Shown here: piece after piece, positions 1 to 51,079 of the stretch
How positions within the stretch are numbered: position 1 is the stretch's first letter
Layout: each line of letters starts with the position of its first letter
NCBI GenBank assembly: GCA_050084515.1
Contig: CM114271.1
Location: 1,612,001 to 1,676,000 of the forward strand
Source: Blasia pusilla
Taxonomy: Eukaryota
Reading direction: 5' to 3'
Length of the DNA: 64,000 bases
Position numbers and translations under genes: made by a program
The notes under the pieces: generated by a model
Told to the model about the DNA's origin: nothing
The model's input: only the letters and a program-made list of their open reading frames with translations
Databases searched by the model: none

Positions 1-1948
1 GGCTAAATCTATGAGTCCATGGATGGGAAGAGTACGTATTCAATTTTTTGACACTGGTCAGAGCTTGAGTGAGGAGTCAGAGGCATCTACCTGTAAACAA
101 CAACTTCGTAGATCAAGTAGAGTTACACATCCAGTTCATAAATTCATAAATGAAGATTTTCTTGCGAAACATCATACATATATGATCACTATCCTTCAAG
201 AACAGGAGCCGAGTTTTTTTCAAGAAGCTGCAAGTAAAGTCGAATGGATTGAAGCTATGGAGAAAGAGCTTGTTGCATCAAGATATCAACAGACATGGAA
301 GCTGATTGATATACCTTTCGATAAGGAAGCTATTGGTTGCAAATGGGTTAACAAAATCAAGCACAATCAAGATGGTACAATTAACAGATACAAATCGAGA
401 TTGGTGGCTAAAGGCTATGCACAACAATATGACATCGATTATGAGGAAATATTTAGCCCTGTTGCAAAGATGGCGACTACGAGAACAGTGGTTGTAGTTG
501 AAGTAAGTAAGAAGTGGAGATTACATCACATGGATGTCAAGAATGCTTTCTTGAATGGAGATCTATACGAGGAGTTAGAACCACCTAGATACAAGCATAC
601 CAAGTTTCCATTTCACGTATGCAAGTTGAAGAAAGCTCTATACGGGCTCAAACAAGCTCCAAGAGCTTGGTATGGCAAGATTACATACGTCCTACAAGAG
701 TTGGGTTTTAGGGTATGTGATTCTGACTCCTCGTTATATGTCTTGAGAGGACAAGATCATACGACTCTCATTGTGTTGTATGTTGATGATCTTCTGATTA
801 TTGGGAGTACCGAAGAAATGGTATAACAAGTCAAGCTTAAGTTACAAGCAGAATTTGATATGAAGGATTGGGAGAACTCAAGCACTCCCTTGGTATTGAG
901 TTTATCAAGGTTGGAGAGAGCATGTGTTTATTACAATGACAATATGCTCTTCATATGCTTTCAAAATATGATATGACGGCTTATAAGCCAATCTCTACAC
1001 CGTTGGATCAGAATGTGAAGCTAAGAGTGAATGAAGGAAAGTTGCTTACAGATTCTAATATGTACAGGCGCATGGTTGGAAGTTTGATCTATCTAACTAT
1101 AACCAGACTAGATTTGAGCTATGCTCTTGGCATAGTGAGCCAATTTATGCAAGCATCTGGAAAACCTCACCTTAATGCTATGAGGAGGATTATGCGGCAT
1201 GTGCAATTCTCTATTCAATTCGGGCTTCAATTTGAACCTTCTCCGAGTTTTCAATTACAGGGATTCACAAATGTTGATTGGGCAGGAAGCGTGTCTGATC
1301 AACACTCCACATCTGGTTATTCATTTACTTTGGGAAGCGCAACTATAAGTTGGGCTTCAAAGAAGCAACCTATCGTTGTTTTATCTTCAATAGAGGCTAA
1401 GTACAGAGGAGCAACCAATGCAGCATGTGAGGCAGTGTGGCTTCATCGATTACTTGTTGAGATTGATGTTAGTAGCTTAGGACCTAGTATAATATATGCA
1501 GACAATATTAATAGCATCAAGCTTGCTAATAATCCTGTGCTTCATGCTTGTACAAAGCATGTTGAGGTGCACTATCATTTTATCAGAGAGAAAGTGCTTG
1601 CAGGAGAAATAGATCTTATGTACATAGTACATATCAGCAAATTGATGACATCTTTACAAATGCATTGTCTAGAGATAAGTTTCAGATGTTTAGAAATGAT
1701 TTAGGCGTTAGAGATATCGATATGAGCTTGAGGGGGAGTATTGAAGATTGAGTTACAATCAAGCTCATGAGACACTAGAACTACTACATTTGGTACTCAT
1801 ACAAAGTAGGGAAGCTTAATCTTGGCTAGTCAGTTAAGAGCGATTATCTTAACTAAGGTTAGTTAATCATAGTTAGTCTAACTCGAGACTATGGTTAAGG
1901 TTAGGGTTGCTTGTATATACCCTTGTAAATAAAATTGGGTTGTGTTCA
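1..1948 (+). mobile_element. Ty1/copia LTR retrotransposon, 3' part (RT, RNase H, PPT, start of 3' LTR), degenerate
   Basis: ORF 11-826 has copia RT motifs (RYKSRLVAKGYAQ, MDVKNAFLNG, LKKALYGLKQAPRAW, LYVDD). ORF 955-1704 has RNase H (DWAG, KHVEVHYHFIRE). Stop and frameshift at ~826-940. PPT GAGGGGGAG at 1730-1738 is followed by TATTGAAG (decayed TGTTG LTR start) at 1739. Confidence 0.93.
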
Positions 1949-2128
1949 TCTATATTACTAAAAGAGGACCGGGTTTGGAAAACCCCTCCTCTTGTGTCGA
2001 CATGTGTTCATTTTGGCTTCATGTGGTGATGACACGTGTAATACAAGAATTAACTAAACATAACAGTGCGTGCCCGCCCTTTCCTCACGGGTGATTTTCA
2101 TCCGTGCAGGGCACAAGCATTATACTAG
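1949..2128 (+). mobile_element. Non-autonomous Helitron (~180 bp)
   Basis: Inserted between A(1948) and T(2129). 5' TCTATATTACTAAAAG, 3' TATACTAG, subterminal hairpin CACGGGTGA-TTT-TCATCCGTG, no TSD. Confidence 0.75.
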
Positions 2129-2402
2129 TGTGGATTTAATGCCCTCCTTTCTTTAGTGACTTCCATTCCATTTAATATTCTTATTCTTTCCCTATTCTTC
2201 TCTTCCATTGTATTTCTGTACGTTAATTTTTCTCATATTTTTGTTTCTCTCAAATAAGTTTTTCACCTTTTCCTTCATCCATCCTCATTCATGGATTAAT
2301 ATCTAACAAAATTAAAATTTTCAAAGAGAAAAAAATAAAACTTAAGAAAAAAACTTCCAAAAAACATGGACCTTCATCTTTATTATAGTGAGCGACCATA
2401 TG

Positions 2403-2942
2403 TGTCACGTCCTTTAGGATAGATCGGTGAGATCTAGTAGAGCGTCTTCGAGAGTAGTGGAGGACAGGCCTAGGAGGTCGAGGATGACCTGCTGAGTCCC
2501 CGGGAAACCTGAAAGAGCAGGTTTCCCCTTCGTTTTGGCTCATTTGGAGCCATATTGAGGAACTTACTATTTTAGGTAAGTACCATTTTTAATATATGAT
2601 CAACTTTCTATTTTTGGTAATTGGCCCTTGACCTCTTACATCAGGTCAAGAGCCAAGGAGGTGACTTGGGAGAATAGGTTACCATGGAGAGAGCTTGGGA
2701 GAAGGGAGGGGTATATATCCAAAGGAGAGAGAGCTTGAGAGCTCATTCTCTCTTTGTTGAACCTCTTGGCATGAGGCGGCGGAGCTATGGTCCCTTGCCT
2801 TGTGAGTGTAATCCAAGCCTCTCATTAGGAGAGTGGGTTTGGTTTGACATGAGAGAGAGTGCACACCTTTGAGAGCTATGGTGTGAGATTGTGTAGAGAG
2901 AGATTGGATCTTACTTTACAAAGAGAGAATGAGAGAGTGACA
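2403..2942 (+). repeat. 5' LTR of the DNMT-carrying retrotransposon (tail and PBS partly deleted)
   Basis: Begins TGTCAC, TATA-like GTATATAT at ~2711, followed by CAGAGC (possible PBS-Met remnant). Similar to the reverse complements of 45100-45270 and 49030-49317. Confidence 0.65.
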
Positions 2943-3479
2943 GAGCTTCATGGAGGAGTTCGCTGGTCACTTGCTGTTTTTGGAGGTTGGGGACCGTGTT
3001 CCTCATTCAACGGCTCATGGGAATGCTCATCGGAGCAAGGGTTGCTTGGATTGTTCTTTGCATTTGCCGATTTTTTTAGGGAAGAGTGGAAAGAGTGGCG
3101 TGAAGCGCTGCCCAATTTTTGATAGGGATTGAGTATGGGGGTGGGTCGCCCCATGCCGGTGCTTTCGGGAGCACCATGTCGCTTGCTGATTTGCATTTTT
3201 GCAGGTTTTACATTTTTGTTGAGAGGAATCAGCACGTAAGCGCTGCCGAATTTTGTGTAGGAGAAAGAGACATTGGGCTTTACGACAATCCCCTTCAGTT
3301 TTTACTGGAATGTTGGATTCTAAATATTTTTTGATACTAGCGTAGATCATCAAGCTGTGCACGCTGTACAACAAACAATGCGCAATTTGGAGTTGCGAGC
3401 AAAAAGTTATGGTCAATCTTGCAAAATTGCCATTGCTAGGCGATTTTTAGGGTTAAATTGTGCAAACCCTAAACTAGCC

Positions 3480-3645
3480 GCCACACCAGCGGCGACCGTC
3501 GCCGTCATATTCACCGTCAACCTTCAACGGAAAAAATAATCTTCGACGGTCAAATATCACCGTCAACGGTCAACCGTCACCAGCGACGGTCAACCATCAC
3601 CGTCACCATCAACGGTCAACCATCACCATCAATGGTCCACCGTCC
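3480..3645. repeat. Degenerate short tandem repeats (CACCGTCAACGGTCAAC-like) in the element's 5' leader
   Basis: Repeated CACCGTCA / ACGGTCAAC units visible at 3511-3640. Confidence 0.6.
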
Positions 3646-5000
3646 GTTGTCCACCCTTTGGTTGCCATTGCCGCCGTTACGGAGTGGAGGGTCTTCCACA
3701 ACGTTCGTTGATTCTCGGACTTGCGTCGCCATCACGTACTTTGTTTTGGCCGCCACTGTCATCAACCTGTGATGGCATATGACCTCCTGTTATAGTGTTT
3801 GAGTTTTGATTTTATGTTGCTATGTTGTGATTGGTAGTCGCTCAACGACGATCGAGTACCGTGTTGTGACGCCGTAGCCGCAACGCACCACCGATTGCCG
3901 TGCCGTGCCGCTCGTGGCCGCACCGCAGCGTCTCGATCGCGGAGCCGCTCTGTCATTGTGGAGCATAGTGTGGGTTTATTGTTGATTGAGGAGGGTATGC
4001 CTCCGAGTGCCGGATCCCATCATCGAGGGCCGTGCCATTCGTAGCCGTTCCGAGCCACCTGCAACGCGTTGCACCGTTCCGCTAGAACCGCACCGTCTAT
4101 CGAGGAGTTTTGAGCAACGTCAGTATGGGAGGAGTATGACTTGCTGATTGGAGGAGTTGTCTCCACGACCGAGTTGGGGTCGAGATTTGCAGTTGTTGAG
4201 GAGCGACATTGACATGTGTTCAGGTTACCCATTCTGGTCCTTTACCTTGCACGTGTGAGGGATTCTGGGATTTGGGTAGTTTATTTGGGGATATTGGGTG
4301 TGTGGATACTGAGAGCATCATTTATGTATGTGGTTTAGGGGACATAGACCTGTGTGGGATGTCTGGAGTTGAGGGTAGGTTATCGATGAAATGATAGCCT
4401 GGTCGATTTGCCCCACCACGCCGCCGCTTATTGCTGCACGTTACATGTCTCGGGGAGGGAGAGTGTAGATCGAGTGCCGCATGTTTGGGATGAGTGATTG
4501 AGGGATTACTTGCGAGGCAAGAGTGATCGGGTGAGAAGGGGACGAGGGTCATCACGATGTCCGTTCGGGACTTTGAGGGCGAGGTGATGAACCCGAGAGT
4601 AGCTCTAGAGGTTTTACACAGAGTGGCGCGAGGTTCCGAGGGTCTCCACGTGAGGGACCACCTCGACCTCCTTCTGTGTCATCGTGAGACAAGGGGGAGG
4701 GTGTAGAGGAGGGTCCTGGACCGGATCCTGCGGACACGGGTGCGGGAGGGGGTGCTTCTTATGAACACCTCCCCTACGTTGAGAGATGTTTTTAGGACCG
4801 CCGAGAACATTTAGTGCAACATGGCGGAGGAGAGCGTAGCCACCATGGGTTCTGGGCAAGAGCAATCACCATTTTCTGCACCACCTGTGCAGCAACGTGG
4901 ACTCCGGGATAGGGTGATTGTGGCACCACGAGCTCAGGGAGGATATCGGGAGGCCGTGCCACAGAGACCTGCGCCTTCATATGCGGCTTAGCAGCAGTCA

Positions 5001-5190
5001 CCTAATATTACTTGTTGGTCATGTGGTGGAGCCCATCATCAACGAGATTGCACTCGTTAGGATCATGGACGTGTGCCTCAACATGGAGGAGGAGATGGTG
5101 CTGCACCAGGAGGTTATCAATGTGACTATTGTCAGAGGTATGGTCATACACGCGCCAAGTGTTTCAGTTTATATCTTGAGTTACGTCCGG
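5001..5190 (+). pseudogene. Retrotransposon gag nucleocapsid region, two zinc knuckles
   Basis: Same frame: CWSCGGAHHQRDC (5013-5051) and CDYCQRYGHTRAKC (5121-5162, CX2CX4HX4C). Confidence 0.8.
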
Positions 5191-6001
5191 ATTGAGGGCC
5201 GGAGAGGGCACTAGAGCGAGTAGCCGGTCTAGGTGGGCCTAGAGATCGTGCTGGAGTTGCCCGACAGGGTGGTGGAGCTACCTATGGAGGAGGTAGAGTA
5301 CCACCACCTAGACGCGCCGAGGGAGACGCCGGACGTGAGGCTGGGATGGCTGCTCAAATACAGCAGCTAAAGGAGCAGATTGCTGCTATGGCATTGAGGT
5401 TACCCGATGGCGGATCCATGGTATGGACATCATATGGAGCAGCCAAGATGTGGAGGATCCTGGTTGGATGTGCGGGGTTGCCCAGATGGAGGTCGCCACA
5501 GTTGTGACGCGTGGAGCAGTCGCAGAGTTGGATCCACAGCGAGGGGAAGCCATAAAATAGACTAGGCTTCCTCAGTCTTTCACGTTGTCCGAAGCGATGA
5601 GGACCCCATCGATGGGTCCTCATCAAAGTTCCTTGAGAGTTGGTGATGTTGTTGGTGTGCAGGCACGGAGGGCGATGGGAGAAACGAGTCCAAGACTCCT
5701 ATTGTTGATGCTCAGGAGGGGCATGTGTCGAGCACGTTGTTGGGGGCCGCCACCGTTGTGTACCGCACTCCTTTATTTTCTGCTTTCCATGTTATGACGT
5801 TGGGGGGTACGCCCGCCGAGGCTTTTCGGCTGGCCGCTTCGCTATGTGAGCGCGGAGTTGGAGTTCCTGCATCACGTTCAAAGGTGATTGCAGAGGAGGT
5901 GATGGACCTGCCCTTGGAGCGGATGCTCGGACCGTCCACGCTAGATTCATGGTAGGCTGCGGCTGCTAGGATGGCGGAGATGACCCGCGATAGAGCGTGC
6001 C

Positions 6002-6484
6002 ATGGCTTCTCCTGGTGTTGTGTTGCTGGATAACCGAGGAGAGGTCTTCCAGTTGGTGAGTCCTGAAGGTAGAGCTTTTAGTCCGCAGCGCGTCTTTTTG
6101 GATTCAGGAGCGCAACCCCTGATGTTGGGGAAAGCGTCATTTAGAGGATTGGGCTTGACGAGAGCCGATGTGGAGCGTTGTCCATTCCGGATATAGACAT
6201 CCTTGGGTGGAGCGAGTACCACACAGTATATCACCCGACAGGAGGTCGTGGTGAGGATTCGCCCGGGATATCTTACAAATGAGTCCGTGGTGAGCGCCAA
6301 GGCAATAGTGACTGATGCAGAGTCCTATGACGTCTTGGTTGGTGGAGTAGTGTTATACCCCATGGGGTTTTCCTTGGATTACTGGGAGTCAGCGTCCTAC
6401 AGACCAAGATGGCAGTTAGGTGATGGGCGCCTTAGCTCATTACCCGTTCGATTCACAAGTGCAGTGATCGAGCAACGGCCATGA
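6002..6484 (+). pseudogene. Retropepsin-like aspartic protease of the retrotransposon
   Basis: VFLDSGAQPLMLG (DSG at 6101-6109) and downstream YDVLVG. In-frame stop at 6194-6196. Confidence 0.8.
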
Positions 6485-6799
6485 GAGATGGTGACCTTAG
6501 CAGCATTTAGCAGTGCCATCACTTGGCCTAGTAATTTGATTGAGGGATATGTCCATGTAGAGGATACTCCCATTCCTGACATTTCTATGGAGAGGAGTGT
6601 TATGGTAGCTACATCATTCCGTGGAGGAGAGGTGCCGTTGTGGGGCTTGATAGAGGAGCTTCGACGATTGGCAGATGAGCACGTGCAGACCGCGTGGAGC
6701 GAGGCGTTTGCACTAGAGCGTGATGGGTCTGAGGAACCCGAGGAAGCAGGGAGTGCTACGATGACGCCCTTGGATACCACATCCACTGTGTGGTGTATC

Positions 6800-7175
6800 C
6801 CGGAGGAGGGTATTCGAGTGTTAGATCTCTTTGGAGGGATTAGCACCGGGTTAGTTGTTGTTTTGCAGGCATGAGTGCGAGTACATCAGTACCTGTATGT
6901 GGAGAGTGATGATGTTGCGAGGCGCGTCTCACTACGACATGTGGCGCACTTACGCCTACGTTTTCCCGACTTATTATCTGCGTCCGCGGTACAGGGATAC
7001 CAAAGTTCCCTACGAAGGGATATTTCGTTGTTGGGGGCGCAAGACTTAGAGCAGGTAGGGACCATTAATTTGGTCATTTCCGGTTGGCAATGTGAGGGCC
7101 AATCGAGTGCTGGACGAGGTAGCGGGTTGGCTGACACTCGGTCCAGATTGTTTTGGGAGATGTTGAGGATCTTAC
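6800..7175 (+). pseudogene. C5 cytosine-specific DNA methyltransferase domain, N-terminal half (motifs I-IV), truncated
   Basis: IRVLDLFGGISTG (motif I), YLYVE (motif II), DI (motif III), INLVISGWQCEGQSSAGRGSGLADTRSRLFWEMLRIL (motif IV, Cys at 7091-7093, P>Q; then the G..D.RS.LF element). Same frame as the protease, one stop at 6872-6874. No ENV motif VI because of the deletion. Confidence 0.85.
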
Positions 7176-8295
7176 TTTACAAAGTTGGATATTTTGGTAC
7201 TTCTTGTCTCGTTGTTTGGATGCCATGAGTTAGCATGGGATCGTGCGTGTTTGTGTGTGTGTTTGGTGACAGCGATATATGTTGTGTAGCGATGTGTATA
7301 CGCACGACATATATGTACAATAGGACAAAATAGTGGGATAGTAAGAAAAAATGGTAATATGTTTGAATTTCGTTCCTTGATTTACATTAGATGGTTAGGG
7401 AATATGAATGTTAGTGGAAAGGGAAAATATTTTTATTGAACGAAAAATTAATTAACATTAACTAATAATTTAGTTAGTGGATTCTATTTTTGGGGGAAGA
7501 ATGGTAGGAAAAGAATAAGTATTGTTGAAACTTTTATGGTAGAATGGAATTATTTAGAGGACTCTGGTATTATTTAAATTTAAATTTAAATTTATAATTA
7601 TTATTCTTTTTTATGTTTGAATATTTCATAAAATAGAAATTATTTTTAAAATTTAAATTAAAAATATCTCTAAATTACTAAAAAATAATTTGTACGGTAC
7701 GCTAACTAGTATTTGTTAATAATAATCGAACAATAAAAAGATTTGCATTATTGAGTATCGGGGAGATCCGGGGTCGGTTTCGTCTCACACTGGTCGGACA
7801 AGACTTTGTATAATAGGGTATCTGAAAATCTGGTCTTACCCTTACCGGCTAGGAAATACCGGTCCCGGTGGAAAACCTCCCGGAGCCTGGAATGGAAACT
7901 CGCATGCATTGGGTCCCGCATACGAGGAAAGCGTGGACTACGTATATAGCTAGCTAATGGACGCTAGACTCGGGAAATCGCATGTATAGGGTCCCGCACT
8001 TGAGGGAAGGGTCGGACTCAGTGTCCCACTGCGAGAAGGACCAGTGCGAGAAGGACAAGTGTACAACTCAGAGTGGGAGACCAGGAGAATTAAGTGGCAT
8101 ACGAATCTTATTCCCGGAAAAGCGGAGGCAGTGAGAGGAAGCTCTCTCTGGTTGCGAGTCGCGCGGGCGGCGAACGGAAGGAAGGACAGAAGGACAGACG
8201 GACGGAACGCGTAGGAGAGGACCGAAGGACCGTCAAGTTTCCGAAGGACGGAAGAACGGGAGTTCCAAAGAGCCGTCCAGTTTTCCATTCGAGTC

Positions 8296-8478
8296 GCTAC
8301 GGACATCCACGAGAGGGAGGGAGGACCGCGCGTATCCCACCGAAGCAGTCCGGTTTCCCATCCGCGTTCCCGCAGTCTGTTGAGTTGCTACGGACATCCA
8401 CGACTCCCCGAGAGGGGGGGAGGACCGTGCGTCTCCCACCGAAGCAGTCCGGTTCTCCATTCGCGTTCCCGCATTCCG
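8296..8478. repeat. Direct tandem duplication (~85-90 bp, 2 copies)
   Basis: GCTACGGACATCCACGA...CCCACCGAAGCAGTCCGGTT...CGCGTTCCCGCA occurs twice. Confidence 0.8.
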
Positions 8479-8535
8479 TTCTTTGCTACCGACATCGACG
8501 AGAAGGAGATGTAGTGGGTACATCCCATTGCTAAA

Positions 8536-8578
8536 GAAAGGAAGGAAGGAAGGAAGGAAGGAAGAAAGGAAGGAAGGA
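8536..8578. repeat. (GGAA)n microsatellite
   Basis: Direct reading of the sequence. Confidence 0.9.
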
Positions 8579-10125
8579 CCGACGGACTACGTGAGCTGTC
8601 CAGTTTCACTCGGCTCCTCGCACTCGCTTCAAAATTTACCGGTACCCGCGCTCACCACAGAATTGCGTATCTGGATGAGCTGAAGCTCCAGGAATGCAAA
8701 CGAACGCACACTAGTGGTGAGTTTCCCTTTCATCATCAGCTTCTTCTGATGCTCAAAGAGCGCTTGAATTTGGAACGAGCTCACTTTTTGCACTGGAACT
8801 GCTGATAATCTTCGCAGGTCCAAGTCCAGTGTATTGATGGGCCGATTCTTGCAGATAATCTGGACCAGTCGGCTCACCAGAGCCTGTCGGTAGCTTGGAA
8901 CAGTCCATTTTCTAGAAAGAGTGAGATGGTGTGATTGCCTTATTTACGTTCATCCGGTTCCGCTCTTCTGCCGGATTCTACAGGTTGTCTTTTGAATTAG
9001 CTATCGATTTCACTCTGGATCTGCGCATGTCAATGTCGGAAATGGTTGGGTGGATCTGAACCATGAACTAGACCATTAAGGGTGGGTAAGATGTTACCTT
9101 CTCCTCTCTCTCGAGTCCAGCACCAGCCACGCCAAGAAGTTCTGATATGAAATGTTGGGTGCGTTTGAATTTAGTGGAGACTTGAAGATGCTATTGCTTA
9201 ACTGGAGAACTGAGGCAAATTATGAGAAAGCCAAAATGAAGAATCGTACATAGCCTTATCCAGAATTATTCTTTCAACAGGAAGATCCAGCTTCTCGTTT
9301 CAGTCAAGAACTTATGTTTGGATCATAAGAGACAGGGAAAGTGGAATAAACTTGCAGATAAGCTAAGGCCTTACAGTTCGTTGATGGGTTCATCGACATC
9401 TTGAGGACTTTTTCGTGAATGCGAAAGCTGTTCTGTCCAGAGTGGCTGACGTGGTTGTGCGATCTCTCGTTTTCTTCCACCCACATTTGACGACTTGATT
9501 TTGAATCCAGACCTCACACATCCACCTACATTTGACGCATTGGTTTATCCAAGTGTTGAGAACTTGAGTGATTATGAATCCAGACATGATACACTCTCCA
9601 GAGTGGGGTGCCACAGTCGGTCGGTCGGTCGGGCGGTCTTGCGTTTTTCTGGTGTAATTGCAACCACATTTGAAATTGCGATGACGATGTAGACGCAAAA
9701 CCGATCTCATGACGACGCTTCAAGTAATGGAAGTAGTTTTTGTACCAAATCTCTGACGGCAGATAAAAGCCACCTCAAGAGTGCTGCTGCTGCAACTGAA
9801 TTTGTCGACGCTTGTGGTTCCAGTCCATGGTGAACTCGCTTCGAACTGTTCAATGACAGAGTAACCTTTGCGCAGCGCCTGTAAGGAAATCTCAAGCGCC
9901 CGAAGTTCTAAACGGCGATGCCTTGATATGGGACAGCAGAAGTCGGGCGAGAGATTGTACATAGATGCAATCCTGCAGTTTGCGATTCTGGCTATAGACT
10001 GTCTCTGCGTTAATCTACTTTCAGTTCCTATAACCTCCTTTCCGGCATCATTTTGCTTTCTTGATGAGACTCCCCAATCCTTCTTTTATCATGGATGCTT
10101 TTAATATGAAATATCTTGAGGATTG

Positions 10126-13100
10126 ATGGTCAAGCTCTCACCAATCTCTTGTGCAGTGCATACCGTGAGGAAATTTGGATTTTCTAGTGCACGCTTCACT
10201 CCTGGTCATATCCGTAAGAGCATCATGGACACTAATGGAAGCTCTGGTGGTATGGATTTCCTCCAAGAAGAAATGATTTCGTTCATTCATTCATTCATAC
10301 CATGCTGTTCAAACTAGTAGTACTGAAAGAGTTCATCTGGATTGTGATAAGATAGGTCTCATGTTGGTGGTTCAAATCGCATAAAATAATTGAAATCGGT
10401 TTGCAACGAGCAGGTCATCAAGTTCCATACTTGGCCGATGCGTCCCAACTTATTGATGATGTGGAGACCTTCATATTCGACATAGACGGTGAGCTGCTGT
10501 CTTTCTTTTCTCTGTCTGTGAGAGAGTGTCTATTAGAGCCCTATTGGGAAATGTATTCTCAAATGTGTTGCTGGAAATAAGTAGTAGAGACTGTGGTGAA
10601 CTCTATCTACATCGAGAAATATAAAGTAGAGATAATAATCTGAGCAAGATAGAGACGGTATATAATGAGACATATAAAGTGCATACTGAACAATGTGAAT
10701 CAGAGATCGTAACGAAATGTATACCGAACAATATCAAGTAAAGATGGCAATATGCTCAAGTGATGTTCCAGATTCTCTATACTCGTTTAAGAGGATGGGC
10801 TCTACATTTCTCAAATCTTAAAAATTTGACATGAATCTTAACGGTCAGGCGAGGCAGCCAAATTTGAAGCAAGTACTAGGACTGGTCGAAAAGATGGGCT
10901 CTCATTACTAATTTACTATTACTAGTTTGTTTCTTGAATAGTACCAGGTTTTTTGGGTGGTCCAACCTAGACACAAGCTCATGGTCAGCTCTGACCCCCA
11001 AGGTTATTTCTAACGAGTTTTTAGGAGGCATATATTTGCAACCAAGTCTCAGGGCTGCTCTTCTGGTCTGAGGACTTTTAGATGGTGGATTGTTTATGCA
11101 GGAGTGATATGGAGAGGTGGCAAGGTAATAGATGGAGTTCCAGAGACTTTAGACATGTTGCGGTCTATGGTGAGTTCACGAAACATATGTAAGCTTTGTT
11201 GTCTTTGTAATTTAGGCGAGACTTCCCGAGTTGGGCTATGGGCCCGGCCGACTTGATGCTTCGAGCTGTTTTGTATAGACCATCTATCACTATTCTGTTA
11301 CTCTGATGCAGGACATAGGACCTAGGTGCATGCTGAGACAGCAAGCTTGCTGGAGAACTTGAAAGTCATGGTGATCTGTTTCCTTGTGGGGAATGAATAG
11401 GGCAAACGGCTACTCTTTATGACCAATAACTCTACCAAGTCAAGGAAGCAGTTCAAGACGAAGTTTCAGGCATTGGGCCTAAGAATTAGCGAGGTATTAG
11501 TGATCTATGTTCGTGCTTTGCCGATATAGAGTGCACCCAGTCTCCTCTTGGAAACTGTAAGAGTTGATGCCAAACTCAGTGTAGAGGGTCACTTCCACTC
11601 GCATTCCTTGCCACAACATGGCAAGTTTTGGCCCTGATTTTCCTTACGAGTCCTTGAGTGCCTCGTTTCTTCCTTGATGAGCTTTCCGATTTCCCCCTTT
11701 AGTCATGGATGCTCTGGAGTCTCAGAGAAAGTAACAGTTCTTCAGTTCCACATCTTCTCTGAATGAAAGATGGCAGATTTGATCTACCGTGTTTATTTGT
11801 ATAATTTTTTCATATCTGTAATTGAGTACTGCTATTTTAGAGCTCGAATAATATTTTCATTCAAAGCTGACTAGTCTGTGATCTCTTTCTGTATATGTTT
11901 ACTCCATTTTTCTGCATTTTCAAGCATACATTTATGGACTCCATGCCAACCAAGGAGGAAGTCCTTCGTACACCTGCTGAGCTGATGTCTTACATGTTCT
12001 TGGTGTAGGAGGAAGTGTTCTCTTCATCGTTTGCTGCGGCAGGCTACTTGCAGTCAATTGGGTTTCCTCCAAATAAGAAGGTTTACGATGAACCTTGAGC
12101 TTTTCTAGTTTGTTCAGTTTTAATTGCAATGTTTAGAAGCAGTCTTTAAATCCTTGAAAGCTTCAAACTTCAAAGGAAGACCTTACAGCTTAGCAGAGTG
12201 TTTTGATAAAACTGAACATCGGAGATTCGGATTCTTTTTCACGTAGGGTTGGTGGAAACTACCTCTTGGCACTGTTAACGAGACGCTTCTTGATTCAATA
12301 GGTGTACGTTGTAGGAGAAGAAGGAATAGGAGAGGAACTTGCGCAAGTCGGTTATCAGCACCTCGGTGGTCCTGTGATTATCCTCTCTTAATCCTTTCCT
12401 TTTTGACTGCAATTCGAGATCTGCTATCATATGATGGTGCTACAGAAGAGTTACTACAGTCTGTATTTCTAATCTCTAGCTTGTCCACTGAGTCGAAGGT
12501 AGAAATTACATGTAATGTGGGATTGTGGGTGCCCCTGAGCAAAAACCCCTGAAGCTACTATCGCATGAAATTGACAGAAGCGGAGAATTCATGCCTTTCT
12601 TCCTCTTCTTTCAGTTCATCATTCCACTATTTACAGGAGAACGCTCATCTGACTTCAGTCTCCTGTGATTTCAGGAGGACGGTGACAAGAAGCTGGACAT
12701 GAAATCAGGCAAAAACTTGGATCATGATCATGATGTATTGGAGCCTAAACCTCTCTGATTTACCAGGGAACTATGATAATAGGCCATATATGTCATCGTG
12801 GCATCTAAATTCTTTCTATGGATGCATGGAGTTTCTGGTACTCACATGCTTATTTGCTGACTGTTGAAGTAGTTTTGCAGGTGCAGTGTTACCCTTTCCC
12901 TCTCTTTGATACTGTCCTGTGAAAGAAACAAATAGTACTAGACGTTTTTGTAATATTTACAAAATAGGCTCCAATAAATTTCACTTTGATTACAGGTGGG
13001 TGCTGTTGTGGTTGGATTCGACAGCTACATCAACTACTACAAGCTAACGTAAGGACTGGTCGGTGAGGGCATGCATGCCGAACTGTCTATATGGCCATTT

Positions 13101-14451
13101 CTTTCTCGCAGCTCCAGTAAATGTGCGGTCCTCTGGGATATGGGGTACTTCGGTGATACATTGCAAGTTTTTGGGCCTTCCTGATGTCAACAGTTACCGA
13201 GAATAACCTTTGTCATCAAATCGGATCTTGAGAAACTGCTCAAAGCAAATCTGATTCTGGAGGGATGATTGGGCCAAATAAATTAGATGTGAAATCCTTA
13301 TTGTGAAATCCAAATACAATCAAATACAGTCCAGTTGCTAAGTCAGTTTGCTGAACCTAGTTTGTGGAAAGAAATCTTTCGAGGAATTCCGGTTCTGCCT
13401 TCACTGAAGGATAACTGGTTGTTGTGGTTGTTTCAATGTGGCAGATATGCAACACTCTGCATACGAGAAAATCCTGGCTGTCTTTTCATCGCCACAAATC
13501 TTGATAGTGTGTCCCATTTTACAGATACACAAGAGTGGCCAGCTGGAGGAACCATGGTTGGTGCTGTAAGAGCCTCAACAAATGTGCAGCCCATTGTTGT
13601 GGGCAAGCCCTCTACTTTTATGATGACGTACCTTGCAAATAAGTAAGTGAACTCAGAACCATGAGATGTAGATATGCGAAAGGGCTTGTAGAGGTCAGAG
13701 TAGGTTTGTTTTCGAATAGGATGCTAAAATGTACTGTTGTCATGTCGAACTCTTAGCCTCCCAGCAGTTTTCAAGTGGCTTGATTATGATGCCGCAGATT
13801 TCAAATCAGCCAGTCAAAGATGTGCATGGTGGGAGACAGGCTTGACACTGATATCCTATTCGGTCAAAATGGTGGATGCAAGACTTTGCTTGTTCTGTCA
13901 GGTACTGAGGTCTTTACCTTTACATTAGAAAAGAGGAGTGATGAGAAGCTGAGGGAAATCAAACTTATGCATCAATGGAAAGTCAGGATGTCATAAGTCT
14001 TCGATCATATTGAAACTTTGAATTGTCTTTTTGGTCTCTTCACTGTGGAAACCAGTTGCTGCCAGAAGTATTCATACAAGAGAAGCAACAAGGTCGCCAA
14101 TATTAGTAGCATGACTTGTTTGGATTTTTGTTCCAGACCAAATTACTAAATAACCAGGCTTTTGTAAATTTGCTTGGAAGCTGAAGTTCGTATTGAAAAG
14201 CCAGTGGCTACTGTGTGTACCAGAAAGATCTGTGAAAGAAATTCTGTCAAGGATAAGTAGACAGCAGTATCAAAACTCCATAGCAGAATTCTTGCAAAAG
14301 GTTGTGCTCTTTCTTAATCACACTTTGTTTTATGAATGCAGGTGTTACAAACCTGAAGACTCTCCAGAGTCATGAGAATACGATTCATCCTGATTTTTAT
14401 GCAAATCAGATATCGGATCTCATGTCTGCCAGAAAATCTGCTGCAGTATGA
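10126..14451 (+). CDS. PGLP1: Phosphoglycolate phosphatase-like HAD hydrolase (subfamily IIA), paralogue 1; 11 exons, ~342 aa
   Basis: Exons 10126-10249, 10414-10488, 11102-11169, 11401-11493, 12009-12080, 12302-12373, 12675-12734, 12996-13048, 13445-13642, 13798-13901, 14342-14451. All GT-AG, sum 1029 nt in frame. Motifs [39 protein letters not shown]. Exon 1 start is uncertain (ATG 10126 or 10225). Symbol denotes family, not orthology. Confidence 0.92.
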
Positions 14452-15246
14452 AATTTCACTATTCAGATTTCCGCATCTTACACCTTGAGAATACACTTGG
14501 AGGCACAGCTCATGTACACTTAAGCCTGATCTAGTAGAGCATTAAATTCCAGTCCCAAGCCTACCCGTCATCTCATTCGCAGCATCGGGGTTCAATCTCC
14601 GATCCCATTTCTGATTACTACGTCATTCGAGCCAAACTCCTTACGACTAAGTTTATCTTTAAACCTGAATTGGCTGGCGCTTTGGGGATTTTCGTCTGCA
14701 TCGCAGAATTATAAATCGCCATGACACGCATCTTCGGAAGAAAAAATTGCTACTTACATCTTGATGCCAGAAACTGACGCTCCTGCAATTTCTGCAGCGA
14801 TTTATCAAGTATTATGGAATATTCATTAAAAACATTCGAGTTTAGGGTTCAGGTAAGCTTGTTATTATTAATAGCGAACATTTCTTATACATGTCTATTG
14901 TATACGAGGTTTAATTTTTTATATATCTTAGTAGGCTATAGTAAATTGATTTATGAGTTAGGTCGATTCGAAATTTATTGGAGAGTGACTTCTAGGTTTT
15001 CATGACAACCGTGAGTTAAAAAATATTTTCTATTTTGAGGTAAGAGGAAAATTTATCTCCTTCTACATCAAGAAAAAGATTTTGCATAATATGATTAGTC
15101 TTTTCACTCTTGAGAGTGGCTCAAATTGCCCACTAATATTTATTTGATATAAGAATAAATATAAAAAATATTAAAACTAGGATAAAAATACTAATCCATG
15201 TTATTAAAAGACTAGAATGAATTGGGATTTGGGAAATCCCTCTTTG

Positions 15247-15838: not shown

Positions 15839-16598
15839 TGTCGTGCGCCTACTCTCCTTGAACGTTAATCTTGTTGTTGCAGAAGCGTGCGTTCATTAGG
15901 TCACGCTCTCAACGCTAATCTGCATCCAAACAAACACGCACTTTGGTTAGTCGGGTCTTGGATCAATCAGCGGGCTAACTTTCCAAGTTCTCGTCTCGGT
16001 ATCTCATCAAGCTCAACCTTCCTAGTTTCGCGGTTTACAACACGGGCAAGTCTCGCAAGACTTGGGACAGACTTTCTGGTCGGTTCAGGAACCTGAAACG
16101 GCGTTTCGCGCCTAGCGGTTCCAACGGTCCGATGGACATCCAATGAGTCCCTAACCGAGACTTGCACAAAGTGAATCTCGGGTTGGAATCCAAGTGTGGC
16201 GTACAAAGTCCACTCCCTTGGATCAGGTTTGGGTTTCGAGTTCCAATGCCAAACTCCCGTTCCATCCCATGCCTCTGAGACGCCGTTTGGCGCTCAAAAT
16301 GGGGATTCGTGTTCCAAGACATCTTGGAGAGACTCCTACCTTACTAGTACTTCTGGGGATCTCCGGGGTCCCCTACCTTTAGGGAAAGACACCTGGGCCT
16401 CTCCAATTGGCCCTCAACCCGATTGCTCTCACAGTCGTTTAAACGCACAACTCTTTTCCACGTTTCGTCTCTTGGACTTTTCCAAGAGACCTTTCCAAAC
16501 GCCTCTCCAAAGCGCAAACATCGCAGCGTGAGTCCACTTGAGTTCTGATGTTCCGCTTGGCACCTATTTGGTGTTGTTTGGTTATGAGGGTCGCGACA
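15839..16598 (-). repeat. 3' LTR of element A
   Basis: TGTCGTGCGCC...GGGTCGCGACA termini, adjacent PPT. Homologous to 57269-58276 and 58817-61033. Confidence 0.88.
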
Positions 16599-18587
16599 CT
16601 CACCCCTCTTTAGAAGGTTGATGTCCTCATCAACGCAAACCTTATTAATGTTAAGTTCTGGGAAGCCAACCCCTTAACATTGAATCACGTTCTGGTAACT
16701 AACCCGCAATTCAACTTTTGGCTTGAGTGTTAGGTTGTCGCTTGCAGCACTTAGAATTATTAGCTTCTTCACTTCAATTAGCCTAGACCAATTCTGGAGA
16801 ACTAATCTAAACTATCAAAATAAGCTAACTAAGTCTGCAACCTAACACTTCATTCACTATTTGTAAACAACCGCCTGCTTACCTAGCCAACTTGTACTAC
16901 TTTTGGGTCACTCGTATTCCACTTAGGCGCGTCACTAAGTTCACTCATGCAACATGAATGAGATCACCACAAACCCCAAGACAGACTAATTTGCCTTGCC
17001 TACGTTAGGGCGAGCCCAAATGCTAGTACTTCAACACTTGATCATGATCTAGATGCCTTATTTGAATACAAGCTCTCACCTCAAATATTCATTATTTGGC
17101 CTCCTTGACTTACATCCTAAGCATATGAAGAACTACTCATTGCCATGCACTACCAAACTCAAAATCGCAATCACTAGCATCGAATCTCCAAATCCATGCA
17201 TTCTTTATTGCAACCACTAAATATTTCTAGTTACAATGGGTTATCGGCCCAAGCTTCCCCGTCACAAGTTATGTCCTTTGCTTCACCATGTACTAACGCA
17301 TGTGCCTATCTTGCATCCATTTGAAGTCTCGCAATGCTTCTTGCGCGTGTTCAAGCTCCGCCTCCGCAATCCAAGTCGCCTCTTTCACTTGGTAGCCTTT
17401 CCACTTAACCAAGTACTCGTACTTGGCGGCTCTACGTCTAGAACGCAGAATGGTCTCAACCTTGAACTCTGGTTCTTCATTTCTGATGACCGGTTGTGGT
17501 CTCAATACCATCCTTCGTTCCGGCCGCGCATTGTCTTGAAGACACTTCTTCAATAATGACACATGGAAAGTCCGGTGAATCTTGAACTTTTTTGGCAGCT
17601 CCAATGTGTACATATCCTCAGACGGCTTTGCCTTGATCACATACGGTCCGGCATACTTGGCTTAAAATTTTGCAGAAAATTCCTTTGGAAGAGTAAGATT
17701 CTTTACACTCAACCACACTTGTTCCCCAACTTGGAAACTCAGTTGGCGCCGACTTTTGTTAGCATGCTTCACGTATCTTAGTTGAGCCTTGGAAAGACTT
17801 TTCCTCGCTCGCTCTTGTCGTTCGTGCATTTCCACTAACAAACATTCCGCCATTGCTTGATGAGTGTGTGCCGATGTAGCGCCCTTTGAAAGAGCCAAGT
17901 CAAGAGGCCCACCTGGTTCTCTTTGATACGCCAGAAGAAACGGAGATTCTCCAATTGCAGAATGCTTGGTCGAGTTGTAACAATACTCAGCCATACTTAG
18001 CCACTTGGCCCAATCTCTTTGGTCTGCACTCACGTAATTCCTTAGGTACTGGTTAAGACCAAGTTTACTTTTTCCGTTTGCCCATCCGTTTGAGGATGGA
18101 AGGCCGTACTAAAGCTGAGTTTGATTCGGAACCTCCTAAATAGTTGTTTCCAAAAGACACTCGTAAACTTCGGATCTCGATCGGACACAATGCTCCTAGG
18201 CAATCCATGAGCTCACCATCAACCATCCAGGAACATTCGGGAAGCCGTGTAGGCCGTTGCAGACTCTCTCGATGGCACAAACCTCCCCAACTTGCTAAAC
18301 CGATCAACTATCACAAGTATAGCGTTATATCCCTCAGATTCTGGAAGACTCGTAATGAAATCCATGCTAATGCTTTGCAAGGGTCCCTCCGGGATTGGAA
18401 AAGGATGAAGTAAGCCTTGTTTCTTCGCATAAGAAACTATGTTCGCCTGACAGGTCACGCAGGTTTTCACATATTGAGCAGCATATTCCTTCTTCTTGGG
18501 CCAAAAGAACCTTTTGGCCAAAACAACAAGAGTGGATTTCTCCCCTTTGTGTCCTGCCAAAGGTCCATCATGACATTCCACAAACAC

Positions 18588-19470
18588 TGTCGTGACCCTC
18601 ATGACCAAACGAGTGCCAAAGCGGAACATCGGAACATTAGCGGGCTAACGCTAAGATGGTTTGCGCGTTGGAGTAGTCTCGAAGAAGAGACAAGAGACGA
18701 GACGCAAGCGAGGCTTCACATTTCAGATGTTGTGGTCGCGACCAAGAAACCTTGACCAAACGCGGAATAAGACTTGAAAGGAGTCAAGTCTAGAAAGTGG
18801 GTTGCCAAAGGAAGGAATCCGGATTTGAAACGCCACTAGCGTTTGAGAGTTTCCGATTGTATTTATAACCATAAATTTTAGCACCAAGATGCGTTTGGAT
18901 TAAACAAGAGTGCGTTGGAAGGCTTATGGAAAGCCGGTTCAAACGCACCAAAGATCTCTGCAAACTCATAAGCAGCGGATGAGAAACAACCCAGAAACGA
19001 CTGTAAGTAGAGTCGGGTTGAGGGCCACAATGAAGGGCCCGACCCTCCTTTTCCAAAAGGGGGTTATTGGAGAACCCTAGAAGTACTAGTAAGGGGGAAG
19101 GTCTCTGAGAGTTCTTGGAACTCGAACCCCACTTTGGGGCGCCATGGGGTGGCTCAAGGGCATGGAACCGATCGAGAGTTTGGGGTTGGATTGGAAAACC
19201 TGAACCAAGTCTACGGAGGCGATTTTAGACATCCCTCTTGGATTTCACGCCGTGACTCAATTACTTGGGTCTCAGTTTGGAACTTGCACGAGGTCCGTTG
19301 AATAGTTGGGATCGCTAGGCGCGTAAGTGCCGTTTTAGGTTCCTGGACTAATCAGGAAGTCTGTTCCAAGTCTTGAAGGACTTGCCATGTTTTGGAAACT
19401 AGGAATTAAGGAAGGTTGAGCTTGATGAGACGCCAAGTTGAGAATTCGGTGGGTTCGAACGCTGGTTGGG
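18588..19470 (+). repeat. Same-family LTR inserted in opposite orientation into the integrase of element A, one end deleted
   Basis: Starts TGTCGTGACCCTC and is the reverse complement of 57380-58276. Integrase coding sequence flanks it on both sides, missing ~30 bp relative to element B. Confidence 0.85.
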
Positions 19471-20851
19471 TCCTGCTCTGCTTAAACCTTAGCAAGCCGT
19501 GTCTCAAACTTAGATTGGCCACCTTCTCACCCCTCTTTAACTTACCAAGGTACTCCCTCGCTTGCGCATCCTTCATGTATCCTTCACGAATCCTTCTTTC
19601 CAGGTCTATTTCATTAGGAACATTGCTCTCAACGCTTGTGCTATCGATGGCATATGCTCATCCCTGCGACTTAATGCATCTGGAATGACATTGTCTTTCC
19701 CCGGCTTGTGGATTTGCTCCACATTTTTCAACGCCAAGGTATTATGCCATCAAAGTTGCTTTGGTGTTACGCGATCCTGGGTCTCAAAATACTTGAGCGA
19801 TATGTGATCGGTGAATACTCGAGTCTTGTGAAGTCCCAGATAGTGACGCCACTTTCTCAAGCAATGAACCACCGCGAATAACTCTTTCTCATGAGTGGGC
19901 CATCTCCTTTGGGTGTCGCTAAGATTCTTGCTCTCGTATGCTACAGGTCTCCCTTTTTGCACCAACATTCCAGCAATCGCAAAATCACTAGCATCAGTGT
20001 GCACCTCGAACGGTTGGTCAAACTCCGGCAGCTTCAGAACTGGTTCTTGCGAGAGGATCTCTTTGACTCGATTGAACGCTTTATCCACTTCCTTAGTCCA
20101 TGTTGTGTTGGAAAATTTTTTGGTCCAATCTGTGAGAGGTTTCACTATTCCCGAAAATTTCTTCACGAATTTCCGGTAAAATTGGACCGCTCCGATGAAC
20201 CTCCTCATCCCCTTCACAGTGGAAGGAGGTTCCCATTTGGCAATGGCGCTTACCTTTTCCATGTCTGGACTCACTCCATCTACACTAACCACATGCCCCA
20301 AGAACTTGATCTTCGTCAAACCAAACTCACTCTTATCCGCATTCGCATACAGCTTGTTCGTCCTGAGTTTCTCAAACACCGTCTTCAAATGTCGAGCGTG
20401 CTACTCTAGTGTTTTCGAATAGATGAGTATGTCATCTATGTAGATGATCACAAACTCATCCGTCTCCTTATGAAAGACGGAGTTCATCAAAATGGTGAAC
20501 ATCGGAGGCGCATTACAAAGACCGAAAGGCATTACCACAAACTTGAACAAACCGTATCTCGTTCTACACGCAATCTTCTCTACATCCGCTTCGGTAATCC
20601 GAATCTGATAATAACCAGATTTTAGGTCAATCCGGCTGAAATACTTGGCACCTGAAAATCGATCAAAGAGGTCATCCATCCTTGGGAGAGGATAGTTGTT
20701 CCTTACCGTCACTTTATTCAGCGCCCGGTATTCAACACAGAGTCTCAACTTCCCATCCTTCTTCTTCACAAAGAGAACGGGCGTTCCATAAGGTGACTTG
20801 CTAGTTCGGATGTAACCCCTCTCTAGGAGTTCACCCAATTGTTTCTTCAAC

Positions 20852-21930
20852 TCACCTTGACGTGTGCCACAAGGCGATTGTAGAATACTATATTCCCCAG
20901 AAGTAGAATGATGGGAATAGATAATGGGCGTATCATAGGCATAGAAGGAGAAAACAAATGGAATGAGGGTGGCGAGTTGTCCTCCTGCATAACGTAACTC
21001 CTCAAAGATGGCCGCACGAGAAACTGAATTGAATGCGTTAGCCACAACGACTTGAATTGCTACCCAATATGGATGAATATCAAGAGTGGAGCAAATCCCA
21101 TGCACCAAAGCCTCACAACCTCCAGGAGTTTCCACTCCAAATTGATGAGGAAATAAGTGGGCACTAAAGTGAGGACGAAATTACAAGCATAGGGATCGAC
21201 TAACCAAGCGGTATAAAACCTCTCCAATAGCCAAAGGGCGCACACCTGAAGGAGGCTTATCCATAGCCAACAAACGACAAGCCCCTAAGAGCCTAGAGAT
21301 AGAGCATGGGAGACGACCTGCAGCCATATGTGCACACACCTTATATAAAGAGACAAAGCCACTTGCTGAATCTGCTTGGATAAAACAATCGCAGAGATGA
21401 TCAAAAACCATCCCTGATAGCCCGCTTGCTGATAAGCGAGGAGTATGCAGAAAAGCCCTTGTGAAAACCTCCAAGTCAAGCTCCAAGTCAAGGTCCGTTG
21501 TATAGTCTTCCATAAAAGGTGGAGCATCGCCACTTGAAGGAGGATGAAGAGCTTCTAAGAGAGCCACTGTTTCCGCACTTGGAACCGCGAGAGAAAGAGG
21601 ACCCAATGCTCGAGCTGCACGTGAAAACTCACCAACCTGCCCCAGAAGTAGACTTCGTCGAAGGTGTTGTTATATTGAAGGCCTCCCATGATTGGCATGT
21701 TGAGTGGGATAAGCTGCAGCTAAGGCTTGTGCTTGAAGTACATGCTCATGTGAACCAGGGGGAGAGGTTACGGTTGTAGGAGGGCGTGTAAAACTAGATA
21801 AGCGAGTAGATGGAGAATCCAACTCCATCTCTGATGACATAGAAGTAAAGGTAGGCAAGTCATCGAAGACAAGGAAAGACATATGAAACGTGGTTTGGAG
21901 AAAGCATGAAGATAACGAGCGAAGCAAAAG
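20852..21930 (-). mobile_element. CRE-type non-LTR retrotransposon RT fragment
   Basis: RPLAIGEVLYRL, (QFGV)[25 protein letters not shown] motifs, with frameshifts and stops. Fused to gypsy RT at ~20852. Confidence 0.8.
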
Positions 21931-44941: not shown

Positions 44942-45500
44942 TGTTGTGTGCATACATGTCATTACACAACATGCATTATTGTCATCATCCAACAAATTCA
45001 TCAACTTGGAAATCATACTCAACCTCGGAAATCAAACTCACGCACAATCCTATACAAAAAATCCACAAAATATGCAATTGCATTCTCACATCACAAAGTT
45101 CTTTTCTATGTCAAATCGAACTCACTCTCCTAATGAGATGTTCACACTATGCAAAACGCAAGAGAGACCATAATTTTGTTGCCTTATAGGAGGAGGTTTA
45201 ACAAAGAGATAATGAGCTCCCAAACTCTTTCTCTCTTTAATGTATAAACCCTTAACCCCCTCCCAAGCCCTCTTCTTGGTGACTTGTGCATATGTGTCAT
45301 ATCTCTAACTCTCTCTAGTAGGATAAAAGGCATTTTCTTAAGATGAAGTCAACTATGTCATAAATAGAGAATTCAAAAGTTCTTCCAAGTAGCCCTTAAT
45401 GGATCTATAACTAGGGAAAACTTTCACACTCAAGTTTCCCACGTTCTCAAAAAATCATCCTCAAATTTTTGGGATCGATACGTGAACTCTCCAAGTACTC
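44942..45500 (-). repeat. LTR related to the DNMT-retrotransposon LTR (probable solo LTR)
   Basis: Reverse complement shares CTCATTAGGAGAGTG and GAGCTCATT.TCTCTTTGTT with 2730-2850. Its terminus TGTTGTGTGCATAC matches the 7296-7309 LTR end. Confidence 0.7.
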
Positions 45501-51060: not shown

Positions 51061-51079
51061 CATCTAAAAAACTCCAAAC

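Follow-up and report, generated by a model that had tools for sequence, protein, structure and literature searches.

Can a retrotransposon of a land plant carry its own DNA methyltransferase? The question is raised by a 64,000-nucleotide stretch of the Blasia pusilla genome (hereafter the window; contig CM114271.1 of assembly GCA_050084515.1, positions 1,612,001 to 1,676,000), where an initial annotation had described the interval 2403-7309 as a dead long terminal repeat (LTR) retrotransposon encoding a C5 cytosine DNA methyltransferase (DNMT) within its polyprotein. Cytosine methylation is the main plant route of transposon silencing, and a transposon family with a de novo methyltransferase of its own would be a striking inversion of silencing by methylation. 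We find that 2403-7309 on the + strand is very probably a single insertion of a Gypsy-type retroelement family whose first open reading frame (ORF1) encodes gag, an aspartic protease and a DNMT3-like C5 DNA methyltransferase. With the same high confidence, this reading also covers the split direct repeats that bound the element, its C>T/G>A decay and a single internal deletion.

The gag-protease-DNMT frame and its relatives

A single + frame holds four stop-to-stop ORFs, at 5984-6196, 6197-6484, 6485-6874 and 6875-7228. For comparison with other proteins, 5561-7228 (+) was translated through its stops, each given as X, into a 556-residue sequence, P0001 (P-numbers denote protein relatives and L-numbers metagenome contig loci, 59 of which came from a contig scan). 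This read-through translation contains nine in-frame stops, three of them within the protease (PR)-DNMT part at P0001 residues 212, 308 and 438. Over the span 4710-7175 (+) the order is gag with two CCHC knuckles, aspartic protease, linker and C5-methyltransferase motifs I-IV, interrupted by stops and frameshifts. The gag remnant (4710-5620, +), itself broken by frameshifts and stops, was delimited by tblastn with residues 199-490 of the Marchantia protein P0004 (33-46% identity, two frames), and the two CCHC zinc knuckles in its translation (5013-5051 and 5121-5162, +) align with the Marchantia gag knuckles. The aspartic protease domain (5984-6484, +), with one internal stop and D-S-G at 6101-6109, aligns with the protease region of P0002-P0011, and the protease-DNMT linker (6485-6799, +) is colinear with every aligned relative. 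The N-terminal third of the DNMT3-like C5-methyltransferase (6800-7175, +), identified by alignment, profile search and RNA reads, extends with motif I from 6821 to FWEMLRIL; downstream of motif I (LDLFGGISTGL) the frame reads YVE, DISLLGA, motif IV as GWQCEG with its Cys codon at 7091-7093, and then RSRLFWEMLRIL. Translation and alignment confirm in place the one-frame ORFs with in-frame stops, the protease, motifs I-IV and the cysteine at 7091 of the initial annotation, as well as the gag knuckles that it had placed upstream.

A search with the window frame returned two proteins of 305-973 residues, P0002 (E 3.5e-61) and P0003. Among longer proteins it returned 13 homologues; 12 come from Marchantia polymorpha, are named 'hypothetical proteins' and have 41-51% identity, with E values as low as 1e-119. 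With tblastn of P0002, P0004 and P0006 on 5984-7180, E values of 1e-103 to 1e-120 were obtained at 48-52% identity, a likeness that, judged by sequence, lies far beyond chance. Overall identity of 4710-7175 to the Marchantia gag-PR-DNMT proteins, some extending into reverse transcriptase (RT) and RNase H (RH), and to the metagenome elements is 41-52%, end to end, and colinearity extends from the gag end across protease and linker to motif IV and further. Past FWEMLR(I/V)L the relatives continue to ENVP, RAHRxRLWWTN, ERERAMGF and LGQAMD and the window copy does not, in agreement with the earlier description of a dead copy lacking motif VI onward, RT and integrase (IN).

The initial annotation had proposed a gypsy-type polyprotein with the DNMT between protease and RT, and this order is seen in three relatives. 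In Marchantia P0006, Pfam places the DNMT at 460-529, RVT_1 at 833-919 and RNase H at 974-1098, with the protease ahead; P0022 has the layout CCHC-DNMT-RT-RH-IN; and L007 encodes gag-PR-DNMT in ORF1 and RT-RH-IN-PHD in ORF2. Both DNMT and RT are present in 38 of the 59 metagenome loci. Contrary to the refuting case named in the initial annotation, the homologues do adjoin retroelement protease and RT: the DNMT ends 4-301 nucleotides (nt) ahead of RT in 32 of the 59, and RT lies upstream of the DNMT in 6. Whole relatives fall into two layouts, CCHC-(PR)-DNMT-RT-RH-IN (P0022, L007) and RT-RH-DNMT-IN-PHD (P0031, L046, L041, and likewise L043, L040 and L053), so that the domain would either have moved within the polyprotein or have been taken up twice; L038, whose Pfam scan lists no PF00145, is grouped in the second layout by RT upstream of its DNMT match. 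In L007 (5083-5091) and L008 (2081-2089), DNMT and RT are parted by a single in-frame TAG followed by CAG TTA, which presumably fits the leaky-stop context of some plant viruses. As it occurs in only 2 of those 32 loci that have the DNMT ahead of RT, this readthrough context was rejected as a feature of the family.

The relatives also allow the methyltransferase to be typed. PF00145 scores 31.9-51.1 bits in them, above the cut-off in five of the seven scanned in the first Pfam set, and the region homologous to the protease matches Pfam gag-asp_proteas in P0026 at E 4.5e-8 and weakly in P0002. A profile of 14 relatives searched against PDB matched DNMT3A best (E 2.8e-10), then DNMT3C and DNMT3B, with HaeIII at 1.6e-3 and DRM2 at 0.39. 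The AlphaFold (AF2) model of the stop-free L007 DNMT domain has a mean pLDDT of 89.2, and the Foldseek matches listed for it are all DNMT3A/B/C (best E 6e-20, TM 0.71-0.81). NCBIfam gave only sub-threshold dcm superfamily matches, and the Protein Atlas clusters only 'DNA methylase, Streptophyta' and phage methylase. Motif order in the relatives is non-rearranged (I, IV, VI, VIII, IX, X), the window copy retaining I-IV only, and in the alignment the catalytic Cys, EN, GS.AHR.R..W.N, ERE and LG..D are invariant in all 10 of 10 stop-free domains. Selection was estimated as the ratio of non-synonymous to synonymous substitution (dN/dS) for pairs with 0.03 < dS < 1.2, a measure not applicable to the dead window copy; the dN/dS check outlined in the initial annotation came out as constraint, with 0.03 (L041-L043), 0.12 (L036-L038) and 0.12 (L007-L008) for the DNMT domain in all three such stop-free pairs. 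The intact relatives are shown by alignment and model to encode a complete DNMT3-like domain with a predicted DNMT3-like fold.

At motif IV the relatives read GWPCQG. The Q for P noted earlier in the window copy is present, but it is not clearly damage, because four stop-free, constrained relatives (L036, L038, L041 and L043) have Glu instead of Pro before the catalytic Cys (W-E-C-Q, alignment columns 100-104); judged from these sequences, it need not be decay.

Ends, damage and surroundings of the window copy

No LTR pair was found around 2300-7450 or in 1-12000; the sole direct repeat linking the ends is one of 18 nt (2906-2923 = 7167-7184). A weak inverted similarity between the AT-rich flanks (25 nt, 80%) was put down to chance. 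The layout of the ends is given by L019, in which A1 lies at 1676-2017, B1 at 10238-10350, A2 at 10350-10691 and B2 at 10693-10805, with all coding parts between A1 and B1, termini TGTCATG...CGACA and an exact 4-bp target duplication, AAGG/AAGG. In the window copy, the 5' terminal repeat A1 (2403-2923, +) starts with TGTCACG and is 63% alike over 2480-2850 to A2 of a second copy in the window (45462-45108), TGTCAYG being common to it and to both A1 and A2 of L019. The 3' terminal repeat B2 (7185-7309, +) ends in CGCACGACA, which is also found in L019 B2, and 7253-7313 is 72-75% alike to both B repeats of copy 2. With the end motifs TGTCAYG and CGCACGACA common to the window copy and L019, the terminal pieces at 2403 and 7309 are, on sequence grounds, real element ends. 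The 'LTR-derived ends' described earlier hold up as ends, but they are two different repeats, A and B, rather than an LTR pair. A probable target-site duplication flanks them: CATATG (2397-2402, +) adjoins the start of A1, and TATATG (7310-7315) on the right matches it at 5 of 6 positions, differing by a C/T transition.

Other copies of the source plant agree with this layout. The joints from B end to A start (7309>2403, two letters between) and from A end to B start (2918>7188) occur in both DNA contigs and RNA reads, and a polypurine stretch lies ahead of B, nearly the same in L019. The stop-free contigs L007, L038, L041, L043 and L046 display no terminal repeats and are uninformative on the repeat layout, because their assemblies probably end at the repeats. 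By these sequence comparisons the family is shown to be bounded by split direct repeats, arranged A1 - coding - polypurine tract - B1-A2-B2; its ends are of the TG...CA type and its target duplication is short.

Copy 2 is broken, older than copy 1 and extends over approximately 51941-44938 (-). Its decayed RT, RNase H and C-terminal PHD region (49505-51941, -) were recognised by similarity to P0006 and L007; the integrase core is missing and the 5' part is replaced by another repeat. The RT-RH span (51941-50191, -), with RVT_1 found in the copy 2 frame, is 49-53% identical to Marchantia P0006, compared with 25-33% for the other gypsy elements of the window, and residues 228-533 and 840-1034 of L007 ORF2 match 51080-50191 and 50080-49505 (-), the latter being the PHD region. 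Its 3' end (44938-45662, -), delimited by self-comparison and by comparison with A1 and B2 of copy 1, consists of B1 (45662-45550), A2 (about 45549-45064, 63% like A1) and B2 (45063-44938). Between the PHD region and B1, decayed ORFs at 47667-48672 (-) inside copy 2 resemble a PIF/Harbinger-type transposase by eye, and Pfam returned nothing for them.

The damage to copy 1 can be read against the family. RNA reads of other copies match it to 7175 and then continue in the DNMT frame, with a translation that aligns with the relatives' next residues, in the window copy, by contrast, the sequence from 7167 on is that of the repeat A tail, with B behind it, which puts the deletion junction at 7175/7176. 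The deletion described by the initial annotation is present, but the breakpoint is not at 7167: the segment 7167-7184 (+) is the last 18 nt of A2, identical to 2906-2923, and its first 9 nt (7167-7175) overlap the DNMT. These 9 nt are common to both parents of the junction, a pattern from which we infer illegitimate recombination at a short repeat. One internal deletion here would have removed DNMT motifs VI-X, RT, RH, IN, B1 and most of A2; A1 (2403-2923) and B2 (7185-7309) are retained. At 160 places the window copy has A/T where the family has G/C, and the reverse holds at 88 (run X1), an excess that fits deamination decay of a methylated, silenced copy. Such C>T/G>A decay would have led to the stops and frameshifts. 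The window copy is dead and without function.

Between A1 and the gag remnant, the leader or 5' untranslated region with an unrecognisable gag N-terminus (2924-4709, +) has a contig depth in the DNA of the source organism like that of the coding part, and self-comparison of the window reveals a short tandem repeat block in it (3511-3644, +). The first ~200 residues of Marchantia gag found no match in 2924-4709 by tblastn, even at E 5. In 9 and 2 RNA reads, but in no DNA contig, the leader lacks 1,104 nt from 2928 to 4033 (ends AT..CG); splicing, a rare variant with a deletion or an artefact could each account for it.

Elsewhere in the window, 20 ORFs or frames scanned with Pfam held transposon domains only, and the remainder is nested copia and gypsy debris. 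Directly upstream of the element lies the 3' part of a Ty1/copia polyprotein (2-1704, +; RVT_2 E 8.8e-51), whose best named match is from the fern Adiantum nelumboides (58%), angiosperms reaching ~53% or less and no liverwort appearing among the 120 matches listed. At this distance the match does not name a host; by itself it would hint, and no more, at a fern or another non-liverwort land plant. Just downstream is a GC-rich tandem repeat (8291-8501) with a unit of ~99 nt and two units 82-88% alike. Another Gypsy family is present in two copies (16510-20854 and 52388-55847) that carry RVT_1, RNase H and integrase; they are 77-79% alike across stretches of 2.1 and 1.4 kb, and additional repeats are nested with them at 57-63 kb. 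Three tandem U2 small nuclear RNA genes on the - strand (26767-26960, 27330-27517 and 27921-28117; 92, 66 and 162 bits) look like an array of one intact and two diverged genes.

The family, its origin and its enzyme

Public DNA and RNA runs of the source organism were compared with a 5.1 kb target at 90% likeness or more. The two DNA runs gave 15,671 and 14,969 contig pieces with 30 of 30 bins covered, and the whole stretch, leader included, therefore belongs to a high-copy family. The two RNA runs gave 1,543 and 1,674 reads, the first mate mostly on the - strand, which means that RNA from the family is of the sense strand if the libraries are of the usual stranded type.

Several observations weigh against reading the element as a member of a DNMT-carrying family with a working enzyme. 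PF00145 does match the window's own frame over about 7016-7174 (E 6e-4), as foreseen by the initial annotation, but with 19.8 bits it stays below the cut-off of 22, a score to be expected of a piece limited to motifs I-IV; the protease profile search suggested alongside it was negative, no Pfam protease family matching the window frame, and the identity of the window DNMT and protease comes from the relatives. Most close metagenome relatives are decayed, with 3-10 stops, and stop-containing copies have dN/dS values of 0.3-1.05. No primer-binding site was identified in the element, and the imperfect target duplication (5/6) in AT-rich surroundings gives moderate support only. The public-run data examined show no stop-free copy in the source organism, an in-frame TAG interrupts the RNA consensus past 7175, and likeness to the window copy reaches 99% or more in only 8 and 10 RNA reads, other copies therefore being the RNA source. 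We know of no assay of the DNMT of any streptophyte element. In the statements on activity in PMC5890265, it is only the dinoflagellate SymbioDIRS-Dnmt3 that is said to be active, in CG methylation.

The breadth of the family bears on its origin. Searching P0002 with phmmer against 1.84 billion cluster representatives gave 4,102 matches at E <= 1e-3, 970 at 1e-10 and 280 at 1e-30, many of them proteins of 1,000-3,456 residues in which the DNMT is central. Organism names were attached to 9 of 30 clusters looked up, namely Calypogeia fissa (3), Marchantia (2) and Closterium strains (4), the last being the sole algal relatives among the named nine; the other 21 are metagenome proteins. Gene models of Marchantia and Calypogeia hold the family, so that it is not absent from land plants, a correction to the earlier remark that DNMT elements are not a standard feature there. 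In a tree of 43 PR-DNMT rows the window copy falls in a 19-row clade (SH-aLRT 100) with P0002, L001-L006 and Marchantia, branching outside the Marchantia and L001-L006 group (99), although with a quick search and long branches only clade membership is safe. By its sequence the window element is of the Gypsy-DNMT3 kind (the KnitGypsy-Dnmt3 kind), now in land plants, and a clade that includes land plants and Closterium argues against a recent acquisition confined to Klebsormidium. Tentatively, and with somewhat less than even confidence, we suggest that retroelements with a DNMT3, an integrase and split repeats are no peculiarity of Klebsormidium but an old lineage of streptophytes, running from Closterium-type algae through liverworts to this plant, where they have reached very high copy number and are still transcribed. 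We found no paper that places DNMT retroelements in Marchantia, other land plants or Closterium, in a search whose reach ended short of subscription papers and supplements; the tables of DNMTs that accompany de Mendoza 2018 and Sarre 2025 lie outside its scope and may list such sequences.

Of the alternatives to this picture, the one that survives best, unlikely as we hold it to be, is that the family was passed horizontally into this plant, from a bryophyte or alga for instance, and did not descend from an ancient streptophyte element. The patchy named distribution (Marchantia, Calypogeia and Closterium for the 9 of 30 clusters) would suit a transfer, as would the lack of any seed-plant protein among the top matches listed despite plentiful seed-plant proteomes. 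Yet nothing in ~15 billion proteins exceeds 53% identity to the window copy, so that there is no near donor and any transfer would be old. The position of the window copy outside the Marchantia and L001-L006 group and its heavy decay in place also count against a transfer.

In whole relatives the first reading frame is followed by a second part, which codes for RT and RNase H and then for a DDE integrase and a PHD finger. In live copies the enzyme would be made together with gag and protease and could methylate the element's new DNA or cDNA, or its landing site, de novo, and the C-terminal PHD finger may read chromatin or help to choose it; together, methylation and choice by the PHD finger would shape how host silencing treats a new copy. 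Pfam scans of the relatives showed no reader domains besides this terminal PHD finger of the integrase protein. The function that we infer for the DNMT in live copies is de novo DNA methylation. It is rather improbable that the domain does not methylate DNA and instead acts on RNA or as a non-catalytic binding module. Such a role has a precedent in the SymbioLINE DNMT, which according to PMC5890265 gave no de novo DNA methylation in yeast and for which RNA was suggested as a possible substrate, and it could be read into the E that precedes the catalytic Cys in L036, L038, L041 and L043 or the Q of the window. It is at odds with the invariance of the catalytic Cys and of motifs VI, VIII, IX and X at dN/dS 0.03-0.12, with the fold and best sequence matches, which are the DNA-methylating DNMT3A/B/C and not DNMT2, and with SymbioDIRS-Dnmt3, stated to methylate CG (PMC5890265).

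The gag-PR-half-DNMT form of the window copy might be, instead of a one-off deletion, a non-autonomous deletion derivative that was itself amplified with the proteins of whole copies. It retains both termini and the probable target duplication, its family is very abundant, and RT-less forms recur: L006 has a 200-nt repeat pair (13420-13619 and 14399-14595) ~1.2 kb past its DNMT, which suggests another copy without RT-IN like that of the window. We give this form only a slim chance, as no contig or read was shown with the 7175/7176 junction, RNA reads at 7175 continue into the DNMT (27 reads, run X20), and the A-to-B joints listed (2918>7188) are the ordinary A2-B2 joint.

That a host DNMT3 gene fragment was captured once by, or merely adjoins, an unrelated retroelement and is no family feature is scarcely credible: the window piece is short (motifs I-IV) and its PF00145 match weak, and transposons commonly capture host gene fragments in plants, but the relatives already contradict this at the sequence level, PR-linker-DNMT forming one frame that is colinear with P0002, P0003, 12 Marchantia proteins and many loci, 38 of 59 loci having DNMT and RT, the L019 DNMT lying inside A1...B1, and the repeated family covering the DNMT part in both the DNA and the RNA runs. 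The initial annotation was right that this is not a host methyltransferase gene, the domain lying in frame behind gag-PR, inside element repeats, and being repeated thousands of times.

The interest of a Gypsy-type family with a DNMT3-like domain lies in its land-plant host, the breadth of its clade and its abundance and transcription, not in the dead copy. Should an intact copy exist, a de novo methyltransferase supplied by a transposon would be at work in the nucleus of a land plant. Surveys of plant DNMT repertoires may count transposon copies, one Marchantia model having the automatic name 'DNA (cytosine-5...', and if the family is what it appears to be, its copies could interfere with the scoring of plant DNMT3 or have given rise to what is so scored. 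Marchantia is a tractable model, and the natural stop-free sequences (L007 and others) are test material for the action of the enzyme.

Comparison with known systems

Gypsy-DNMT3 elements of streptophytes have been published for Klebsormidium, and DNMT elements of dinoflagellates as well (PMC5890265); a later paper and a preprint, where they cite de Mendoza 2018, say 'streptophytes'. The closest described element is KnitGypsy-Dnmt3 of Klebsormidium nitens, which has repeats as in a DIRS retrotransposon and domains as in Gypsy (legend to Fig. 4c of PMC5890265) and a DNMT stated to be under purifying selection, with Ka/Ks < 0.2 (PMC5890265). By this published description the two share an intronless, non-rearranged DNMT3-type domain in a polyprotein of Gypsy content, split repeats (A1 ... 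B1-A2-B2 here) and constraint on the domain (dN/dS 0.03-0.12 in the relatives here). They differ in host, a land plant with liverwort relatives here and a charophyte alga there, and in distribution: the clade here spans Closterium, liverworts and this plant, whereas acquisition 'in the K. nitens lineage' was inferred by de Mendoza et al. 2018 (PMC5890265). Methylation of cDNA, evasion of recognition and self-limitation are among the options that those authors discuss (PMC5890265).

The Symbiodinium elements SymbioDIRS-Dnmt3 and SymbioLINE-Dnmt, whose enzymes de Mendoza et al. 2018 tested in yeast (PMC5890265), are likewise retroelements with a C5 DNMT, the DIRS one being of DNMT3 type. Their backbone is a tyrosine-recombinase DIRS or a LINE, in contrast to the DDE integrase (rve) and Gypsy RT/RH found here. 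The A1-B1-A2-B2 layout is that of PAT/Ngaro-type elements, which carry internal repeats downstream of the coding region (PMC4157794). Unlike those, the relatives have a DDE integrase and, in L019, a 4-bp target duplication; Pfam on whole relatives found no tyrosine recombinase, with rve and Integrase_H2C2 found instead.

With Ty3/Gypsy elements the family shares the CCHC gag, aspartic protease, RVT_1, RT_RNaseH, Integrase_H2C2 and rve in the order PR-RT-RH-IN, as well as TG...CA ends and a short target duplication. It departs from them in having A at the 5' end and B-A-B at the 3' end instead of two like LTRs, in the extra DNMT, and in relatives that end in a PHD finger; chromoviruses end in a chromodomain. 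Host DNMT3 and DRM proteins, finally, share with it a DNMT3-like catalytic domain, by sequence and predicted fold, in the order I-IV-VI-VIII-IX-X. The element's domain is set apart from DRM by not being circularly permuted (DRM2 E 0.39), and from host genes in general by being fused behind a retroelement protease, colinear and without introns, rather than standing alone.

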